This document shows positions 1-7,421 of a stretch of DNA of 7,951 bases, in pieces; position 1 is the stretch's first letter, and every line of letters begins with the position of its first letter. The notes under the pieces were generated by a model. It searched no databases, was not told the DNA's origin, and saw only the letters and a list, made by a program, of their open reading frames with translations. The position numbers and the translations under genes are program-made. The stretch is taken from IMG/VR virus record IMGVR_UViG_2648501208_000002. One strand, 5' to 3'. Origin of the DNA: a virus (lineage: Duplodnaviria > Heunggongvirae > Uroviricota > Caudoviricetes).

Positions 1-105
1 CAGCCGGATATGTGCCAGTACAGACGTTTCAGGGTTGCCATTACATACGCCAGTGATTCTTACCTGGCATTCCCGACCACGCGCTGCTTTTCTCAAATCA
101 GCCAT
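1..105 (-). CDS. Nin-region phage protein, N-terminal fragment (resembles DUF1364-type proteins); runs off the window edge
   Basis: Minus-strand ATG at 105-103 translates to MADLRKAARGRECQVRITGVCNGNPETSVLAHIRL... and is open to position 1. The start overlaps the upstream ninE-like stop (ATGGCTGA) and an AGGAGG lies about 6 nt upstream. The family assignment is from memory only. Confidence 0.4.
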   Translation of the reverse strand, partial: MADLRKAARGRECQVRITGVCNGNPETSVLAHIRL

Positions 106-268
106 GATTCCTCCTTGCTGCCAGTCGCAACCATTTTTTATCAACCAGGCTAGCGGTATATCCGAGCAGTGTTGGTATTTCGGATGGCTTCAGCTCAGGC
201 TTACGCTTACGACGATTTGGTACTCTGTAGATGTGTCCGTTCATGACACGAATAAGCGGTGTAGCCAT
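98..268 (-). CDS. ninE: NinE-like small basic protein (56 aa)
   Basis: Not in the ORF track because it is short. Minus-strand ATG at 268-266, preceded by GGAGG, overlaps the ninB stop as TAATG. Translation [56 protein letters not shown] resembles the C-terminal half of lambda NinE as I recall it (KPKPIPKE...YTAHLWDIRWLRRRARK). Stop TGA at 100-98. Confidence 0.5.
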   Translation of the reverse strand: MATPLIRVMNGHIYRVPNRRKRKPELKPSEIPTLLGYTASLVDKKWLRLAARRNHG

Positions 269-723
269 TACGCCTCCTGCTTGTCGCGCAGCAGCTGGAA
301 CTCGCAGCTCTGCGGAATAGTCAGGTGGCAGCCAATATTCATCGCCCAGGCTTCAACCTTACACAGGAAGACATACATCTCTCCGGTATCAAGATCGGAA
401 GTATGGCGTAACGACTGGATAGTAGTGATTTCGCCGGTTACGACATCAACCAGGTCCTTGGTTTCATAACCGAGGTATGTGTGTTTGAGAGCATCTTTTA
501 CCCAAGCTGGAGTGGCGAACGTTTTACCCCTGCTGATGAGGTATTCACTGATTTCGCTGTACCACATGTGGCTGAGTGCATTCTGGGAAAGACTGCGTTT
601 CTCACGCCACGGTTTAAGCACCATGCGAAAGCATTTCCCTTCCTCCAGATAAGGCTGGATCTGCTGGCCGATAGCGGTGAAGTTACCACGATGCAATTTG
701 ATGCCGTCTTGTGGGAGGTTCAC
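268..723 (-). CDS. ninB: NinB-like recombination protein (151 aa), GTG start
   Basis: 151-aa ORF. The start codon is GTG (plus-strand cac at 721-723) with GGAGG about 7 nt upstream. It sits where ninB sits in lambda, after ren and before ninE. The [13 protein letters not shown] segment resembles the NinB RSLDQN..LW segment; overall it is divergent from lambda NinB. Confidence 0.55.
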
Positions 724-750
724 GCTTCACCTCCGCAGAGGTCAAACGCT

Positions 751-841
751 GGATGCAAAAAATCGCAGGTGCATCTCTGCATCTGTGAAGGGAGAAGAGA
801 GTTTGGATTGTATGTGCGCATAAACGTCCCCGTTTAGCGCA
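751..841. repeat. Copy 1 of a 91-bp imperfect direct repeat (about 92% identical to 2684-2774); ends in a strong hairpin (815-841)
   Basis: Aligned by eye against 2684-2774: 7 mismatches over 91 nt, same orientation. The terminal hairpin is tgcgcataaacg / tccc loop / cgtttagcgca, an 11-bp stem with one bulge. It lies immediately upstream of the ninB start on the minus strand. Confidence 0.85.
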
Positions 842-917
842 GAAGTCACCGGAGTTGTTCAAGCTCCAATGGCATGATTATGGCTGGTTGATTATTGGAA
901 ATCAAATGTGCTGAAAA

Positions 918-1427
918 TTAGTCTGCCAAGTCTTCCTCAGTCGCAACTGGGTAATTCCAAATATCAAAAAAAGCTATAGCCTCCTGCCATTTGCTCCATA
1001 AGTTATCAAGTACTTGTGTAGGTTCCGTACTTTTAAAAACAGAATCAGCCGCATCACCGTTATGAACTTCCTCGTACAGTTCCATTATTAGCAGATTAAC
1101 AAAGTACTGTTTCAACATTAATGCCTGATTACCTTCTTTCTGCTGGCTATCCTGCTTGATGAGCTCCATCGCCCGTACTAGGCACCTGATGATATCCGCT
1201 GCATCATTAACGCTCCATTCAGATCCGCGCTTATCTTTAGCTGATGAATTAGCTCTCTCAGCGCAAGCCTTTAAAGACTCATAAAGGTAAACTCTATTTT
1301 GTAGCTGCAGCGCTTTTTTTGACGTGCACCAACTTGCAAGCGCCGACCCCGCTGCGGCTAATGTGCCAAACGCAGAAATGCCTGCTGCTATTGCACTTAA
1401 GTCGGCACTGTCAAAGTTCCACATCAT
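918..1427 (-). CDS. Hypothetical protein (169 aa) with a hydrophobic N-terminal segment; function unknown
   Basis: ORF with AAGGTG 5 nt upstream of the ATG at 1427. Residues about 9-33 (LSAIAAGISAFGTLAAAGSALASWC) are hydrophobic and could be a membrane anchor or signal; the rest is predicted helical with an acidic C-terminus. AT-rich codon usage unlike the lambda backbone. No family recognised. Confidence 0.55.
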   Translation of the reverse strand: MMWNFDSADLSAIAAGISAFGTLAAAGSALASWCTSKKALQLQNRVYLYESLKACAERANSSAKDKRGSEWSVNDAADIIRCLVRAMELIKQDSQQKEGNQALMLKQYFVNLLIMELYEEVHNGDAADSVFKSTEPTQVLDNLWSKWQEAIAFFDIWNYPVATEEDLAD

Positions 1428-1661
1428 CGTTACACCTTATATAAACACCCCTCAGTAATATCCAATAAGGTATGTGAACAATCAATATAATTTATATCCG
1501 TATCGGCACATAGCGATTTTAATGCTACTGATAATGGTATCTTTTAGATTATATCGTCCAGTTCCAGTACCCGTATTTTATGAAATGGACTCGCACATTA
1601 CCAAAAAAATGCCAGCACTTCCGTCATCGCAGAATGCTGGCAGTATTTCTAACTAGTGACT

Positions 1662-2270
1662 TTATTGCAACAGATTCTGACGGAAATATGGTAACACACG
1701 ACTCCACTTATCATCCTGCCACGGTTGGAATTTTACATGCGCCGTTTCTCTGGCAAGGATTTCTCGCGCCCTGTTGAGTATCCGAGGATATTCTTGTTCG
1801 ATTGAAGTGAATCTACCTGCTTCGCGATGCTCTGCGACCTGAAGAAGGGGCGTAACGTTCTGGCAGGCGGTTAACATCGTATCACTTGCTCGCCATAACC
1901 AGGCGAGTGTGCAAAGTTCGTTATCAGTGAATTGTTTTGTGATTGGGGATTGTTGAACTTCTCGATCGAGAATATCCAGAACCCAGCGGCGGAATTCTTT
2001 GGCCACAGGAGTACGAGCAAACATGGCGATCAAATGGGCTCCGCGAAGGCTAAATACTCGAGACTCCTGCATTCCACGAGGGGTGGTCACTTTGACCACC
2101 CTTGTCATCATATCTGTGAATTCATCTGAGTGCCGAGAGTAAATGCGCTGAACTGCTTTATCGTCCGCATATTCCAGTGCTAAACCAACTTCAGTGGCAG
2201 TAAGCCAAATTCTGTTATTGTGGCAAATCGGGGTAAACGTCGTTTTGTGGAATGCTAATTGAGTAGTCAT
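1662..2270 (-). CDS. BRO-N / phage antirepressor N-terminal-domain-like protein (202 aa)
   Basis: ORF with GAGGTGA 5 nt upstream of the ATG at 2270. The N-terminal region (RIWLTATEVGLALEY...SLRGAHLIAMFARTPVAKEFRRWVLDIL) fits the Bro-N/antirepressor pattern (..DVA..LGY... / ..AK.F..WV) from memory. The C-terminal half is unassigned. Confidence 0.55.
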   Translation of the reverse strand: MTTQLAFHKTTFTPICHNNRIWLTATEVGLALEYADDKAVQRIYSRHSDEFTDMMTRVVKVTTPRGMQESRVFSLRGAHLIAMFARTPVAKEFRRWVLDILDREVQQSPITKQFTDNELCTLAWLWRASDTMLTACQNVTPLLQVAEHREAGRFTSIEQEYPRILNRAREILARETAHVKFQPWQDDKWSRVLPYFRQNLLQ

Positions 2271-2426
2271 AGTATCACCTCATCAGGTTAACCATCACCA
2301 CCAACGACGCCAATCGACTGGTGGTGAACTGTGTAAGGTTGGCGTAACCGGCTACTCAAACCCGGCGCTTCCGAAGAAGCCCTCACACAGCCCACCATAA
2401 TTTGGGCATAGCCGTGCTTAGCGCAC

Positions 2427-2448
2427 AAAAAAACCGCTTAACGCGGTA
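2427..2448 (-). terminator. Putative intrinsic terminator on the minus strand
   Basis: Minus-strand RNA reads ACCGC-GUUAA-GCGGU followed by 7 U (plus-strand A-run at 2427-2433, stem-loop 2434-2447). The stem is short (5 bp) and only moderately GC-rich. Confidence 0.4.
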
Positions 2449-2533
2449 TGCGTTGAGTAGTATCCCGGGACGCCAATCCCGTGTGCCGATTTTGCGGCAA
2501 CGCACAGAATATAGCGCCGGATAAATCATGTCG

Positions 2534-2623
2534 TCAACCCCAGTAAATGGACACCATGATGATCACAGCCATAGCTGCTACAACAGTTACAACTACCTCA
2601 GGCCAAAACATAACGATTTCCAT
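2534..2623 (-). CDS. Possible 29-aa hydrophobic peptide (MEIVMFWPEVVVTVVAAMAVIIMVSIYWG)
   Basis: Not in the ORF track (too short). AAGGTGA lies directly upstream, but the spacing to the first ATG is only 2 nt; the internal Met at codon 5 would give a 25-aa product with more usual spacing. Almost entirely hydrophobic, single predicted transmembrane helix. The putative terminator at 2427-2448 follows about 85 nt downstream. Speculative. Confidence 0.3.
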   Translation of the reverse strand: MEIVMFWPEVVVTVVAAMAVIIMVSIYWG

Positions 2624-2683
2624 ATCACCTTTAGCCGCCAGACGAATAGAGACTCCCAATTCTGGCTGTCGAAGTAAAACACC

Positions 2684-2774
2684 GAATGTAAAAAATCGTA
2701 GGTGCATTTCTGCATCTGTGAATGGAGATGAGAGTTTGGATTGTGTGTGCGCATAAACGTCCCCGTTTAGCGCA
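2684..2774. repeat. Copy 2 of the 91-bp imperfect direct repeat; the same terminal hairpin at 2748-2774
   Basis: See copy 1. Copy 2 lies between the 500-aa gene promoter region and the small-peptide/BRO-N module. Confidence 0.85.
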
Positions 2775-2822
2775 ACCCCACCACCGGGTGTTCAGGCCGA
2801 CAGTAACTATATTATTCCCTAC

Positions 2823-2838
2823 TGATTTTTGAAAATCA
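2823..2838. promoter_or_regulatory. Perfect 7-2-7 palindrome TGATTTT-TG-AAAATCA; candidate operator
   Basis: Seen directly in the sequence, about 245 bp upstream of the 500-aa gene start in an AT-rich intergenic region. No cognate regulator identified. Confidence 0.25.
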
Positions 2839-2893
2839 AAGGTCTTTATACGTCACACGAGAGCAAATATTTCCGAAGAAGAAACCTTTCGCC

Positions 2894-2991
2894 TTGAAAG
2901 GATAAAGAGTTCATTTCATAAATTGAAATATTCAATAAGAATATTGCAAAAAATGAAATTATTTACTAGCGAGTCTATCTAACTGATAATT
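2894..2991 (+). promoter_or_regulatory. Candidate sigma70 promoter region for the 500-aa gene
   Basis: Two by-eye candidates: TTGAAA (2894-2899)-N17-CATAAA (2917-2922), and TTACTA (2963-2968)-N17-ATAATT (2986-2991). A hairpin CCTTTC-N5-GAAAGG (2885-2901) overlaps the first -35. Low confidence; AT-rich DNA gives many chance matches. Confidence 0.2.
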
Positions 2992-3082
2992 ATGAAGATT
3001 GTAAGCGGTAGCAATCACCCGCATACACATTGAACAGGATTTAATACAAAACGTCTTAAATTGTCCGTAAGGAATAGCACGA

Positions 3083-4585
3083 ATGACTCAAACTCCTCTA
3101 TTACTTGCAATCATATTTTTATTGGTTGTTCTTGTTCTTTATATAGCTGCAATCAAACGCATCAAAAAAATACAATTAGAATTAAGTGATAGCAATCAAA
3201 AAAATGAAGAATACAAATCTCGCTTTGCAGATTATTTTAATGTAGAAGAAGAATGTAAGAAGCTTATTGAGAAAACAGAGCAAGAATGCTCCATAATAAA
3301 AGAAGAATCCCTAAAAGTAAAAGAAAATGCCAATAATGAACTAACAAACACCATTGAAAAAATGGATGGTATCAATAAACAAATCCAAGAGCTAAGAAGA
3401 ACTTATAAAGAGAAGAAAGAAATATATGATAAACTAGTAAGGCAAATTTCTATTTATTCAGAAGATGTTGAGCTAGCCGAACTAGGATTTTACGAACCTC
3501 ATTTTAATTTTGAAGATTCAGAGCAATTTAAAAACAAAATAAAATCCATCAGGGATGAACAGAAATTAATGCTGCGGGATAAAACCCACTCTGGCGCAGT
3601 ATATTGTACAACCCAATGGACTGTTGAAGGCTCTCGAGCAGAGGGTAAAAAAATGACAGACAGAAATATCAGGCTAACTACTAGAGCATTTAATAATGAA
3701 TGTGATGCTGCAATTAGCAATTGCACGTGGAAAAACATCACTAAAATGGAAGAACGCATCACAAAGGCATTTGAGGCCATAAATAAACTAAACGAGCAAA
3801 ATCACATATATATAAACACTAAATACCTCAATAAAAAACTTGAGGAATTGTGGCTTACCCATGAATATCGTGAGCAAAAACAGAAAGAAAAAGAAGAACA
3901 GGCAGAAATAAGGGCACAAATGAGAGAGGAGGAGCGTGCACAACGAGAAATAGAAAAGGCCATGCAAGACGCAGAGGCAGAAGAGCGCCGTTATAAAAAA
4001 GCAATTGAAGCTGCAAGAAAGGAAATGGAAAAAGTTACTGGTGACATGAAGCAGCGCCTCGAAAATCGCATTGCCGAACTAGAACAGAGTTTGTCGCAGG
4101 CTGAATCAAAGCATCAAAGAGCATTATCCATGGCACAACAAACCAAACAAGGTCATGTTTATATTATTTCGAACATAGGTTCTTTTGGGGAGAATGTTTA
4201 TAAAATAGGCATAACACGACGTCTTGATCCGCAAGACCGTGTAAATGAGCTCGGTGATGCATCTGTTCCTTTTATTTTTGATGTACATGCCATGATTTAT
4301 TCGGAGGACGCTCCATCATTAGAAAAAAAACTACATGATGTCTTCGATAAAAAGAGAGTCAATCTTGTAAATCGTAGAAAAGAGTTTTTCTATGTTACTC
4401 TGGATGAGATCAAAGAAGCTGTTAAAAAACACTCTGATTCAGAAATTGAATTTATTGAGACAGCAGTCGCAAAAGACTTTAATGAGTCATTGGCTATTCG
4501 TAATCATGAAAATAAAAAAAGTGACAACAGCAACTCATCAATTATACCTGAGCGAAAAACCCCAGAGTTTGCAGATGCAATTTAA
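3083..4585 (+). CDS. Membrane-anchored coiled-coil protein with C-terminal GIY-YIG-like (T5orf172/MUG113-type) domain, 500 aa; candidate anti-phage or exclusion protein
   Basis: Longest ORF in the window, on the strand opposite the phage early operon, with AAGGA 9 nt upstream of the ATG. N-terminal hydrophobic helix (LLLAIIFLLVVLVLYIAAI). Residues about 250-340 are K/E/R/Q-rich heptad-like coiled-coil. C-terminal GHVYIISNIGSFGENVYKIGITRRLDPQDRVNELGD...EKKLHDVF...RKEFFYV matches the T5orf172/GIY-YIG-like signature from memory. The middle region (GFYEPHFNFEDS...CTTQWTVEGS) resembles the DUF4041 region that often accompanies T5orf172. Very AT-rich codon usage, by eye roughly 30-35% G+C. Confidence 0.85.
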   Translation: MTQTPLLLAIIFLLVVLVLYIAAIKRIKKIQLELSDSNQKNEEYKSRFADYFNVEEECKKLIEKTEQECSIIKEESLKVKENANNELTNTIEKMDGINKQIQELRRTYKEKKEIYDKLVRQISIYSEDVELAELGFYEPHFNFEDSEQFKNKIKSIRDEQKLMLRDKTHSGAVYCTTQWTVEGSRAEGKKMTDRNIRLTTRAFNNECDAAISNCTWKNITKMEERITKAFEAINKLNEQNHIYINTKYLNKKLEELWLTHEYREQKQKEKEEQAEIRAQMREEERAQREIEKAMQDAEAEERRYKKAIEAARKEMEKVTGDMKQRLENRIAELEQSLSQAESKHQRALSMAQQTKQGHVYIISNIGSFGENVYKIGITRRLDPQDRVNELGDASVPFIFDVHAMIYSEDAPSLEKKLHDVFDKKRVNLVNRRKEFFYVTLDEIKEAVKKHSDSEIEFIETAVAKDFNESLAIRNHENKKSDNSNSSIIPERKTPEFADAI

Positions 4586-4610
4586 TTAATTTGTAGTAGC
4601 AATAAAGCAG

Positions 4611-4650
4611 GCATCGTTGAGAATATTTTGTCAGCGATGCTTACTTCTCT
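4611..4650 (+). terminator. Possible terminator or hairpin downstream of the 500-aa gene
   Basis: Inverted repeat GCATCG-N18-CGATGC followed by TTACTTCTCT. The loop is long and the T-tract is interrupted. Confidence 0.2.
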
Positions 4651-4833
4651 AACAAAAACGGTGATTACCAACGAACTAACGGACTTCAGGTAATCATAAG
4701 ACAAATGGAACGACTCTCCGGTGATTAGATCCCTGCAATAACAGTAATTTTCTACTAACTGAAAAATCTTTAACTGCCGCTCCTATTTCTAAGCTGACTG
4801 CTAGATTACATGGTGTGTTACCGATGAAAACCG

Positions 4834-5136
4834 TCACAGCAAGTTTAAGTTCATATCTCCATACACTGCCAACACTCGTTTCATCGCGGCACTCTGGCGA
4901 CACTCCTTGAAAATCAGATTCGTGCTCACCTTTCCTTCCCGTTCTTCCCTGGTAGCGAACCGGTAATACACCGTTCGCCAGACCTTACCATCAACGACCA
5001 AGATTCCTGCCCGTGCCATTTTAGCCGCAGCCTGATTTATACTGGTTACTGTTGCGCCTGTTACCGCAGCAACGTCCTGCGCACAGAAGCTCTTATGCGT
5101 CCCCAGGTAATGAATAATTGCCTCTTTGCCCGTCAT
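4834..5136 (-). CDS. ren: Ren protein (lambda-type), with a divergent C-terminal tail
   Basis: MTGKEAIIHYLGTH...ATREEREGK...KECRQSAAMKRVLAVYG matches lambda Ren as I recall it. The last 7 residues (DMNLNLL) differ from the lambda ending. The ATGA start/stop overlap with P is as in lambda. Confidence 0.85.
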   Translation of the reverse strand: MTGKEAIIHYLGTHKSFCAQDVAAVTGATVTSINQAAAKMARAGILVVDGKVWRTVYYRFATREEREGKVSTNLIFKECRQSAAMKRVLAVYGDMNLNLL

Positions 5137-5834
5137 ACAGTTGCTCCTTTCAGTCCGAACTTCGCTTTGATTTCTGCGATCTTCGCCAGAGCCTGTGCAC
5201 GATTTAGAGGTCTACCGCCCATGACAGGAAGTTGTTTTACTGGTTCAGGTATCGCCTCACCACGGTTAATTCGCGCGGTCATACAAGTCAGTTCATCGGC
5301 AGCCTTGCGCCGTAATTCCGCATCAGTAAGCGCATTGGCCCGCATGTTCTGATACAGGTTGGTAACCAGCCAGTAGTGCGCGTTTGATTTCCACGGATAA
5401 GACTCTGCATCTGGATACAGGCCACGTTTCCGGCAATACTCGTAAACCATATCAACCAGCTCGCTGGCGTTTGGCAGCCCGGCGGTAACGGATGCTTCTT
5501 CCCGGCACCAGGCAACAAACTGCCCGGGTGATGGCAGGAATGGTCGATTCTGCCGACGGGCTACGCGCATTCCTGCGTCAACCTGTTCCATCGTGGTGAT
5601 CCCGTTTTCCCGGAAAGCCAGAACCCACTGGCGGCGGATTTCGTTCAGTTCGTTCTGGTCCCGGTTAGCCAGGCTCGCCGGGAAAGTTGCCAGTAACTGG
5701 CTGAACACACCATTGATGATCTGCGCTACCTGTTGTACCTGCGGCTTTTCGTCGTACTGTTCCGGCATGTTGTTGGCGATCCGGCGCATCTGCTCACGGT
5801 CAAAGTTAACCATCTGTGCGGCGATGTTTTTCAT
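5133..5834 (-). CDS. P: Replication protein P (lambda-type, DnaB helicase loader)
   Basis: 233 aa, MKNIAAQMVNFDREQMRRIANNMPEQYDEKPQ...AKFGLKGATV, almost identical to lambda P from memory. Confidence 0.95.
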   Translation of the reverse strand: MKNIAAQMVNFDREQMRRIANNMPEQYDEKPQVQQVAQIINGVFSQLLATFPASLANRDQNELNEIRRQWVLAFRENGITTMEQVDAGMRVARRQNRPFLPSPGQFVAWCREEASVTAGLPNASELVDMVYEYCRKRGLYPDAESYPWKSNAHYWLVTNLYQNMRANALTDAELRRKAADELTCMTARINRGEAIPEPVKQLPVMGGRPLNRAQALAKIAEIKAKFGLKGATV

Positions 5835-6726
5835 AAATCCACCCCGTAAATCCAGTCAGTGTTAAAGCCTGTTGCTTGTTACGGTTGATTTCGAGTTGGG
5901 TCCACTTGTCGCGGAGTTTGGCCGGACTTAGCACGTTACCGGACCAGAAGTTGTCCTGGCATGCCCAGCGGAACAGCACGCACATGTCGCGGTGGTTACG
6001 GCCGTCACGTTCACGCATCAGGCGGATATCGTTAGCCCACCCTGCAAAATTCGGTTTTCTGGCTGATGGCGCGATGGTCTTCACCATGTCAAACATCCAC
6101 TCTGCGGCGGTCAGGTCTTCTGCTGTCCCCCACCTGCTGCCGCTCTGAATTGCAGCATCTGGTTTCTCCACAGGAAGATCGTTTTCTGGTTGGTCAGAGG
6201 ATTCGCCAGAATTCTCGGACGAAAAAGGTTTTATATTGTCTTTTGTTAGTTTGTCTTTTGTGTTTACCTGATTCGGGTAAGTGCCTTTACCTGATTTGGG
6301 TAAACTTTTCTTACCTGATTCAGGTAAATTTACCTCTTTCAGGTAAACTTTATTTTTCTTACCTGATTCGGGTAATGTTGACCATTCACTGACCACATTA
6401 TTAATGCCGATATTCCGCCCGCTCTGAATAAAAATCCCACGCTTTACCAGAACACTTTTTGCAGCAGAACACTTGTGCGGCAATATCCCGGTCAACTCGG
6501 AAAGTTGCTCGTTGCTCACCCAATCCAGTTTTTTATTAAAGCCATATGTTTTGCGCATGACAGCCAGGAAGACCAGAAGCTGGTGCTGTGTTAATCCGGC
6601 CAGCATCACAGCTTCCAGCAACTCATTTGCAATGCGCGTATAACCATCATCGAGATCTGCCACGCGCGGCTCCTTTTGTGCCGCATCCGGCACTGGAAAA
6701 TTGAATATCTCAGCAGTGTTTGCCAT
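5806..6726 (-). CDS. O: Replication initiator protein O (lambda-type C-terminal domain; N-terminal iteron-binding domain diverged)
   Basis: The central and C-terminal region (YSSENSGESSDQPENDL...TAEDLTAAEWMFDMVKTIAPSARKPNFAGWANDIRLMRERDGRNHRDMCVLFRWACQDNFWSGNVLSPAKLRDKWTQLEINRNKQQA) is lambda O. I place the start at the internal ATG at 6726 (MANTAEIFNF..., GGGAGG 4 nt upstream), which corresponds to the lambda O N-terminus; the ORF track extends 30 codons further, to 6816. The 3' end overlaps P by 29 nt in an unusual way (see findings). Confidence 0.9.
   Translation of the reverse strand: MANTAEIFNFPVPDAAQKEPRVADLDDGYTRIANELLEAVMLAGLTQHQLLVFLAVMRKTYGFNKKLDWVSNEQLSELTGILPHKCSAAKSVLVKRGIFIQSGRNIGINNVVSEWSTLPESGKKNKVYLKEVNLPESGKKSLPKSGKGTYPNQVNTKDKLTKDNIKPFSSENSGESSDQPENDLPVEKPDAAIQSGSRWGTAEDLTAAEWMFDMVKTIAPSARKPNFAGWANDIRLMRERDGRNHRDMCVLFRWACQDNFWSGNVLSPAKLRDKWTQLEINRNKQQALTLTGFTGWIYEKHRRTDG
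6265..6375. repeat. Replication origin iterons (five 16-bp repeats, consensus TACCTGATTCGGGTAA) inside O
   Basis: Repeats at 6265-6280, 6288-6303, 6312-6327, 6331-6346 (degenerate) and 6360-6375, each with palindromic ends (TACC...GGTA). An AT-rich tract at about 6225-6264 lies on the side expected from lambda ori organisation, given that O is transcribed on the minus strand. Confidence 0.8.
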
Positions 6727-6812: not shown

Positions 6813-7352
6813 TCATATTGCCCCCAGCATGGTGGTCACCATCGCCATTAATGGACCAGCCAGATCCGGGTCCACACGAAACATCGACACAATACCTTCA
6901 CTCATTTCCTTCAGTTTCTGGTGGCGTGGTGCGTTGAGAATGACAGCCTGTTTTGCCTCACTGAGTTCCTTTTCCATTTCAGCCAACCGAGTCATGAAGC
7001 TATCCTGCTCAACCAGGTAACCGCGATATTCCAGCGGTAGTACCGCCAGAATTGCCGGGGTCAGTTCACGCACGTTATTTCGGTATTTTTCAGAATCGAA
7101 TTTGTTATCGAGGAAGCGGAACAGCTTCTGGCGTGCACGGCTGACATCATCAGGGAAATCGATGGTGCCGTCGCCCTGCTCCCGATACTCATTCACAATG
7201 AGTGCGGCAACGACATCCTGATTATCTACAGCCGACCAGGCGCGGACGGCATCACGGATTTTTTCGTGGCCTGGAGCTTGTTTTGTTTGAGAACGATTTA
7301 TCACCGCAGTCGGAATAAATCCGCTAGTCTGTTGGTATGTAAGTGGTTGCAT
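6813..7352 (-). CDS. YdaT-like protein occupying the cII position (179 aa)
   Basis: ORF with AAGGAG 8 nt upstream of the ATG at 7352, immediately downstream of the cro-like gene. The segment RELTPAILAVLPLEYRGYL resembles the conserved PAILAILP.ELR motif of YdaT-family proteins from memory. Confidence 0.55.
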   Translation of the reverse strand: MQPLTYQQTSGFIPTAVINRSQTKQAPGHEKIRDAVRAWSAVDNQDVVAALIVNEYREQGDGTIDFPDDVSRARQKLFRFLDNKFDSEKYRNNVRELTPAILAVLPLEYRGYLVEQDSFMTRLAEMEKELSEAKQAVILNAPRHQKLKEMSEGIVSMFRVDPDLAGPLMAMVTTMLGAI

Positions 7353-7421
7353 AATTGACTCCTTTAGTTTGAATTGACTGTTAAGTTGATTGCTTATTGT
7401 TAAAGAGCGTGAAATGGAAAT

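Follow-up and report, generated by a model that had tools for sequence, protein, structure and literature searches.

The viral record IMGVR_UViG_2648501208_000002 (Caudoviricetes) is a stretch of 7,951 nucleotides (nt), here called the window in its whole length, and it is the early-right region of a temperate coliphage of the lambda/DLP12 type, read on the minus strand. The genes run in the order cro–ydaT–O–P–ren and, beyond a gap of 4110 nt measured from the ren stop (4834) to the ybcN start (723), ylcH–ybcN(NinB-like)–ninE (Table 1). A first-pass annotation made from the letters alone had placed an insert of about 4 kb between ren and a ninB-type gene, and comparison with lambda, in which 73 nt separate the two, bears this out. 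The flanking gene it called ninB does belong to the NinB family according to PHROG and NCBIfam, but it is of the YbcN type and scores 22.7 bits, slightly under the Pfam NinB cut-off of 23.8. The island is genuine accessory cargo that comprises a known anti-phage nuclease, SNIPE (also named PD-lambda-1), an RNA-gated antirepressor cassette and one gene of unknown function, orf169; as had been noted, one gene lies on the opposite strand, and this sole plus-strand gene is SNIPE. Positions 1-5863 are 99.9% identical, with 4 differences, to Escherichia phage PhiR26_1 (PV340555.1), and divergence between the two is greater upstream of 5863 than within the island. PhiR26_1, a viable and complete 48-kb phage propagated on MG1655 and near-identical to the window, carries lambda-type head and tail genes (including H and J) together with DLP12-type nin, Q and lysis genes, and the whole arrangement is present in 26 complete E. 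coli genomes.

Table 1. Features of the ren-ybcN interval and its flanks (ORF, open reading frame; aa, amino acids).
Feature	Position	Strand	Evidence or remark
SNIPE / PD-lambda-1, 500 aa, membrane-anchored, DUF4041 and GIY-YIG (T5orf172) nuclease domain	3083..4585	plus	PADLOC, Pfam
Promoter-like site upstream of SNIPE, TTTACT-17-GATAAT	2962..2990	plus	consensus scan 9/12, weak
Strong hairpin between convergent SNIPE and ren; candidate SNIPE terminator, possibly bidirectional	4606..4646	both	folding
Promoter-like site of the antirepressor cassette, TTGACG-18-TATATT	2508..2537	minus	best consensus match in the region, 10/12
isrK-like small RNA with its own terminator hairpin (2447-2433), then T-run	2427..2499	minus	Rfam RF01394, 58.7 bits (gathering score 50)
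C4-type antisense RNA, counterpart of P1 c4 and of the Gifsy-1 STnc1160 region	2317..2402	minus	Rfam RF01695, 74.8 bits (gathering score 45)
orf45-like upstream ORF, 36 codons from ATG (46 from TTG at 2428)	2288..2398	minus	PHROG 20442, 8.7e-09; analogy to Gifsy-1 orf45
Antirepressor (Ant/AnrP-like), 202 aa	1662..2270	minus	Pfam P22_AR_C 1.7e-17, Bro-N 4.4e-10; PHROG anti-repressor Ant 2.8e-56
Intrinsic terminator after ant, GC-rich hairpin then U7	1603..1641	minus	fold -18.6 kcal/mol, z -4.1, 0/200 shuffles as stable
orf169, narrow-family all-alpha protein	918..1427	minus	PHROG 1779 (unknown function), 1.7e-102
ylcH', 53-codon ORF, first ~24 codons a copy of ylcH, holds repeat copy 2 (2671-2774)	2593..2754	minus	no family match
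ylcH leader anchor, internal diverged copy (type B): palindrome, promoter-like site, hairpin	2755..2840	minus	80% identity to PhiR34_1 ybcN-upstream region
ylcH leader anchor, type A, left-hand conserved slot boundary	822..906	minus	palindrome, promoter-like site, hairpin loop CUUGAACAA
ylcH, 33 codons, stop overlaps ybcN start, holds repeat copy 1 (738-841)	720..821	minus	size and position as K-12 ylcH b4588, closely similar protein
ren, right-hand conserved flank	4834..5136	minus	PHROG Ren-like 5.5e-42
ybcN (NinB-family), first gene of conserved nin-type module	268..723	minus	NCBIfam PRK09741 3.3e-84; PHROG NinB 5.8e-53
ninE	268-98	minus	
P	5834-5133	minus	
O	6816-5806	minus	contains iterons
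YdaT-family protein, cII position	7352-6813	minus	
Cro-like YdaS protein	7652-7422	minus	

Both ends of the insert are sharply defined. At the right, the junction had been placed within the last codons of ren, and in blastn comparison the homology to lambda indeed stops at 4854, 8 nt before the lambda ren stop, while homology to two sister phages stops at 4859 and 4874. At the left, the repeat that was said to adjoin ninB proves to be a direct repeat of 104 nt (738-841 and 2671-2774, 89% identity) that adjoins ybcN and constitutes the 5' part of ylcH. Since sequence common to other cargo types reaches ~906, the island bounds first given as 842-4857 are refined, and the variable part runs from ~907 to 4853. 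The claim of a much lower G+C content (GC) than in the flanks holds for the SNIPE half (2775-4857, 0.354; third codon positions of the SNIPE gene, 0.28) but not uniformly, as the DNA between the repeats (842-2774) has 0.455, with 0.443 for orf169, 0.473 for ant and 0.507 for the RNA leader, and the flanks have 0.49-0.51. Across the whole PhiR26_1 genome, cut into 1.5-kb pieces (mean 0.503, standard deviation 0.069, minimum 0.349), the SNIPE gene with its GC of 0.351 falls in the lowest 0.2% and is the lowest-GC stretch of the phage, the remaining low-GC stretches being the usual moron regions. The contrast with the backbone is strong but uneven.

The plus-strand gene encodes a protein that matches the PADLOC PD-Lambda-1 model (PDLC03976) along its full length, residues 1-485 on a model of 491 positions, at 1.5e-197. 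It has a single N-terminal transmembrane helix (residues 6-24, LLLAIIFLLVVLVLYIAAI, Kyte-Doolittle hydropathy 3.37), a DUF4041 domain (PF13250, 1.2e-19, residues 198-252) and, at residues 357-449, matches to MUG113 (1.5e-18) and T5orf172 (1.1e-16) with the catalytic E414 present; 9/9 residues named in the SNIPE paper (E414, E223, W257, L253, E264, K305, I308, T319 and N250) stand at their published positions. No sequence relatives were found among the solved structures of the PDB. As far as can be judged by these comparisons the published SNIPE protein and that of the window are the same protein, and all annotatable parts of the island have in fact been described before: the PhiR26_1 record already labels the gene 'PD-lambda-1', and RefSeq genomes carry the annotation 'SNIPE associated domain'. 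What is added here for SNIPE is where it natively sits, namely between ren and ylcH, which elements adjoin it and how often it occurs in complete genomes. The allele occurs in 131/5426 complete E. coli genomes, directly beside ren in 110 of them and with the SNIPE-ylcH'-isrK junction in 83, and in one E. coli strain this island is found within a decayed prophage that occupies the argU/DLP12 site. Insertion sequence (IS) elements (IS5, ISEc48 and IS3) interrupt or flank SNIPE in the E. coli genomes H33, H51, H52 and H57 and in the viral locus L008; as these elements lie in or beside the gene in several genomes, they suggest that it is recurrently inactivated.

SNIPE is an inner-membrane protein that cleaves siphovirus DNA while this is being injected via ManYZ (10.1101/2025.11.03.685801). 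Some E. coli strains harbour PD-lambda-1 (10.1101/2025.11.03.685801), and Vassallo et al. 2022, who cloned defence systems including PD-lambda-1 with their predicted native promoters, found that some of these systems lie in lambdoid prophages (PMC9519451). By analogy with the published protein, the window gene may likewise block siphoviruses by cutting their DNA at injection. As it has a promoter-like site of its own and is oriented against the early-right (pR-equivalent) operon, SNIPE is probably on in the lysogen. The hairpin that follows it folds stably on the plus strand (4598-4660, -20.9 kcal/mol, z -5.4, 0/200 shuffles as stable) and less so on the minus strand (-15.5 kcal/mol, z -2.2), and would act as the SNIPE terminator, with a weak U-tract. 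SNIPE is without effect on the yield of an induced resident lambda prophage (10.1101/2025.11.03.685801); its presence on a lambda-type prophage fits this sparing, which explains how such a prophage can carry the gene safely.

The second unit has the anatomy of an isrK/C4 antirepressor cassette. The C4 match is full-length (model positions 1-87), and the C4 region is overlapped by the orf45-like ORF, whose end lies 18 nt short of the ATG of ant. A match to the c4-a1b1 target family (RF03163, 2514-2462) overlaps the isrK-like RNA and at 39.6 bits is below the gathering score of 46.7. More than 200 phages, many Stx (Shiga toxin) phages among them, have an RNA leader 69-78% identical to this one, and Ant is without sequence relatives among the solved structures of the PDB. 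In Gifsy-1, the short form of IsrK switches on translation of the read-through mRNA, and AnrP brings about induction of the prophage (PMC4825925).

The third unit consists of orf169, whose narrow enterobacterial family comprises only 14 clusters among 5.8 billion proteins, none with Pfam domains. An AlphaFold2 model is helical (mean pLDDT, the predicted local distance difference test, 70.7) and gave no informative fold match in structure comparison; the N-terminus is weakly hydrophobic, with a hydropathy of 1.59 that is borderline for a membrane helix. These features point to a small helical protein, possibly membrane-associated.

Each copy of the 104-nt repeat is accompanied by a leader. In the type A leader a TTGATT-N6-AATCAA palindrome overlaps the promoter-like TTGATT-17-CATAAT and is followed by the hairpin. 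A block of 29 nt is invariant in 17/17 distinct leader variants aligned, among which the TTGATT half-site is likewise invariant and the other half keeps an invariant ATCA core, with a spacer that varies. The hairpin has a conserved loop, CCUGAACA(A/C); 98.3% of its cells are paired and 4/6 pairs are changed on both sides between types A and B, a covariation that rests essentially on this one type-A/type-B split. Leader matches occur in 2740/5426 complete E. coli genomes (about half) and ren in 2887/5426. We found no other copy of the hairpin in the phage genome. The idea that it is an extra nut/boxB site was dropped, since no similar hairpin exists elsewhere in the phage and a boxA-like sequence lies downstream of cro as expected. 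The ORF ylcH', which begins as a copy of ylcH, is probably a by-product of recombination.

To place the island among its relatives we surveyed the best 80 of more than 592 Ren matches (IMG/VR loci, Ren at least 93% identical), 70 of which have both flanks. The first-pass annotation had itself named uniform, conserved content in relatives with the same backbone as the finding that would speak against a cargo island, and the relatives show the opposite. Their gaps hold 23 configurations in 70 loci and range from 76 to 6243 bp, the 76-bp gap being lambda-like with tR2 only, and gap GC is mostly 0.33-0.43 next to flanks of ~0.51. In the ybcN-type loci YbcN is 95-100% identical and conserved core genes stand on both sides. 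SNIPE is alone in 7 loci (gap 2181) and combined with the antirepressor cassette and orf169 in 9, including the window, as well as in the L008 variant with extra inserted DNA. A HEC-07-like gene of 472 aa is alone in 6 loci and accompanied by the ant cassette and orf169 in 2; the DLP12 set emrE-ybcK-ybcL-ybcM fills 6 loci plus variants; a GNAT acetyltransferase, IS66-type genes and several unknown genes occur as further cargo, and the sister phages PhiR34_1 and PhiR5_1 have yet other content at the same place. Known defence systems in the slot are SNIPE, AbiLi/AbiLii (1.8e-83 and 8.7e-21) and BstA (3.8e-121), besides the weak HEC-07-like match. The interval is thus a recurrent variable locus, and the proposed cargo and defence hotspot is supported, with the reservation that in the window SNIPE alone is a demonstrated defence gene.

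These contents bear on the simplest alternative, namely that the interval is ordinary early-operon content from which lambda is derived by deletion and that no hotspot exists. Every ybcN-type locus in the sample does have a gap of at least 2 kb, and short gaps are seen only together with lambda-type ninB, as such a view would predict. It is contradicted by the differing contents that the survey reveals, at least a dozen unrelated gene sets between near-identical flanks, as well as by the strong compositional contrast, and we consider it barely credible.

The boundaries of the slot recur from locus to locus. Ren is common as far as ..MKRVL(A)VYG (codons 89-93), after which come ten different tails, one per left-hand cargo type, and in every ybcN-type locus a conserved leader of ~85 nt precedes ylcH, all cargo stopping just upstream of it. 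A second copy of the ylcH leader is present only where a second, ybcN-proximal cassette is stacked: isrK-ant-orf169 in L005, L008 and L045, and a truncated ant copy with a reverse-strand gene in L075. Moreover, the SNIPE-only junction is the exact chimera expected from a crossover between the two repeats of the window. As second copies occur only in stacked loci and the SNIPE-only junction is such a chimera, we propose that the island arose when homologous recombination at the 5' segment of ylcH stacked a second cassette onto SNIPE. The notion of one inserted island is accordingly modified, in that the cargo is genuine but consists of stacked, independently assorting cassettes instead of a single insertion. 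Could the whole 4 kb nevertheless be one mobile element, whether a transposon, an integrative element or a module delivered by a recombinase, that entered the 3' end of ren in a single event? The sharp junctions at both ends and the direct repeat would suit such an event, and other slot variants carry the large serine recombinase ybcK, in principle able to create the site. Yet no transposase, integrase or other recombinase gene and no terminal inverted repeats were found within 842-4857, the 104-nt repeat lies inside the island at one end and represents a piece of ylcH, not a target-site duplication, and parts of the island are found separately in relatives. We judge a single mobile element very improbable. 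Insertion targeted to a tRNA gene was ruled out, since the window has none.

A further alternative is that SNIPE works together with the antirepressor cassette as a single functional system, for instance a membrane defence in which Ant serves as a switch for escape or induction upon challenge. The two are adjacent in 83/131 SNIPE-bearing complete genomes and in 10/18 SNIPE loci of the IMG/VR sample; against this, SNIPE is found without the cassette, the cassette also occurs beside another left-hand gene or immediately behind ren, many phages that lack SNIPE have the isrK/C4 leader, and PD-lambda-1 protects as a single cloned gene (PMC9519451; 10.1101/2025.11.03.685801). A joint system thus appears improbable.

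Taken together, we estimate with a probability of about 0.85 that the interval between ren and ybcN serves lambda/DLP12-type E. coli phages as a recombinational cargo slot, which in the window holds three stacked units that are separately transcribed, as indicated by the promoter-like sites and terminators between them. The first, SNIPE, would be transcribed from its own promoter, probably in the lysogen, and would provide a lambda-like prophage with a superinfection-exclusion gene compatible with itself. In the second, RNA pairing may gate the read-through and translation of an antirepressor that, by homology to Gifsy-1 and P1 ImmI, would be able to inactivate a prophage repressor. The third would supply orf169, the small helical and possibly membrane-associated protein. 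Cargo would be swapped by homologous recombination in the conserved flanks, that is in ren up to codons 89-93 and in the leader before ylcH, and comparative anatomy suggests that a second copy of the ylcH 5' end lets a second cassette be stacked or lost.

Several points weigh against this picture. The sample was drawn from the closest Ren matches, and this biases the configuration frequencies towards close relatives. The promoter prediction for SNIPE is weak, with 9/12 consensus matches, and promoter-like sites in the region number 15, little more than the shuffled expectation of 10.0 (standard deviation 3.1). The isrK-C4 duplex is marginal (15/500 shuffles as stable), and neither C4 nor isrK pairs with the ant leader better than shuffled sequences do; as these pairing calculations are marginal, the regulation of the cassette rests on homology. 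What is said on SNIPE expression in the lysogen, on Ant activity and on the route of recombination is inferred. Finally, instead of homologous exchange that still goes on, the recurrence of the breakpoints could have its cause in selection for joints that are viable, or in a site-specific event in an ancestor.

Several slot genes deserve separate mention. In L034 the 472-aa ORF occupies gap positions 410-1828 on the strand opposite to ren, which is the position of SNIPE, and has a weak PADLOC HEC-07 match (1e-9) and no Pfam domain; in L024 a 515-aa HD-domain protein is encoded at gap positions 392-1939 in the orientation of ren, between ren and SNIPE. Both are candidate defence genes. The BstA homologue of L059 (PADLOC 3.8e-121) lies at gap positions 2860-3804 and adjoins ybcN; BstA is typically found downstream of the prophage repressor (PMC8585504). 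In L075 (gap 4837 bp) the isrK promoter and leader directly follow ren, and two ant copies, one of them truncated, are combined with two paralogous reverse-strand genes (254 and 241 aa) and a second ylcH leader between them, a tandem stack that resembles a duplication. A Ren scan of genome contigs was uninformative, as most of its hits were a lambda-type Ren, 91% identical to that of the window and hence at the level of lambda, on short or low-coverage contigs (L088-L099 and L105) from assemblies labelled Pseudomonas, Shewanella, Oceanobacillus, Bradyrhizobium, Paenibacillus and others; in these unrelated taxa it is most likely lambda DNA contamination.

It is tempting to go further and to regard the ylcH leader, with its operator-like palindrome, promoter-like site, hairpin and invariant block, not as passive homology but as a dedicated, reiterable docking and regulatory element that controls or restarts the nin genes behind whatever cargo is present and allows cassettes to be stacked serially, and the uncharacterised genes of the slot (orf169, the 472-aa protein, the 515-aa HD protein and the 254/260-aa proteins) as new genes of anti-phage defence or competition between prophages. 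We regard this extended proposal as doubtful, if worth keeping in mind.

The flanks hold what is expected of such a phage. Five iteron-like repeats of ~22 nt of the TTACCTGATTCGGGTAA type lie inside O at 6259-6375, in a locally AT-rich stretch, and are the expected lambda-type origin. A boxA-like CGCTCTTTAACAA, near the rrn boxA consensus, is located in 7353-7421 between the cro-like and ydaT-like genes (PV340555.1 ~6832-6844), just downstream of cro and thus at the expected nutR position. No gene is annotated as N in the record of PhiR26_1.

The slot offers a simple and well-bounded place to find accessory and defence genes in the most-studied family of temperate coliphages, and it holds several sizeable unannotated genes that can be tested directly for phage exclusion. 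It also shows SNIPE where it is native, on a lambda-type prophage, the relatives of which are themselves SNIPE targets. Current ideas are not overturned by these results; rather, the border of the replication and nin modules joins P2/P4 and the cI-N region in the picture of prophage hotspots. A literature search returned no paper that names the ren-ninB/ybcN slot, an absence that is no proof that the slot is undescribed.

Compared with known systems, the window copy of SNIPE agrees with the published protein (PMC9519451; 10.1101/2025.11.03.685801) in its 500 aa, N-terminal transmembrane helix, DUF4041, C-terminal GIY-YIG/T5orf172 domain and all nine residues, and no difference is detectable at the sequence level. 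The antirepressor cassette shares with isrK-orf45-anrP of Gifsy-1 (PMC4825925) and c4-icd-ant of P1/P7 ImmI the order of promoter, isrK-type RNA and terminator, C4 region over a short ORF, and antirepressor. Unlike these, its upstream ORF has 36-46 codons and ends 18 nt before ant, with putative translational coupling, an adjacent antQ-type gene is missing, the cassette sits in the ren-ybcN slot, and its regulation is assigned by homology, with marginal pairing energies.

The slot itself has a counterpart in the cryptic prophage DLP12 of K-12 (renD-emrE-ylcJ-ybcK-ybcL-ybcM-ylcH-ybcN), which has the same backbone, the same slot boundaries (ren tail and ylcH leader) and ~4 kb of cargo, whereas the cargo is entirely different, lies wholly on the operon strand and codes for an efflux pump, a serine recombinase, a periplasmic protein and an AraC-type regulator. 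Lambda, with ren-tR2-ninB, represents the 'empty' state of the same position, Ren being common up to ~codon 93; its 73-nt gap contains tR2 and is followed by lambda-type ninB, whereas the window has ylcH-ybcN instead, and lambda tR2 was not found in the window. As in the P2/P4 hotspots (PMC9122126) and the lambdoid cI-N region, which holds rexAB and BstA (PMC8585504, citing Degnan 2007), core genes flank a short, highly variable, low-GC interval rich in defence systems of one or two genes. In contrast to both, the ren-ybcN slot lies between the replication and the nin/recombination genes, mixes defence with regulatory and other cargo, and can stack cassettes via its reiterated leader.

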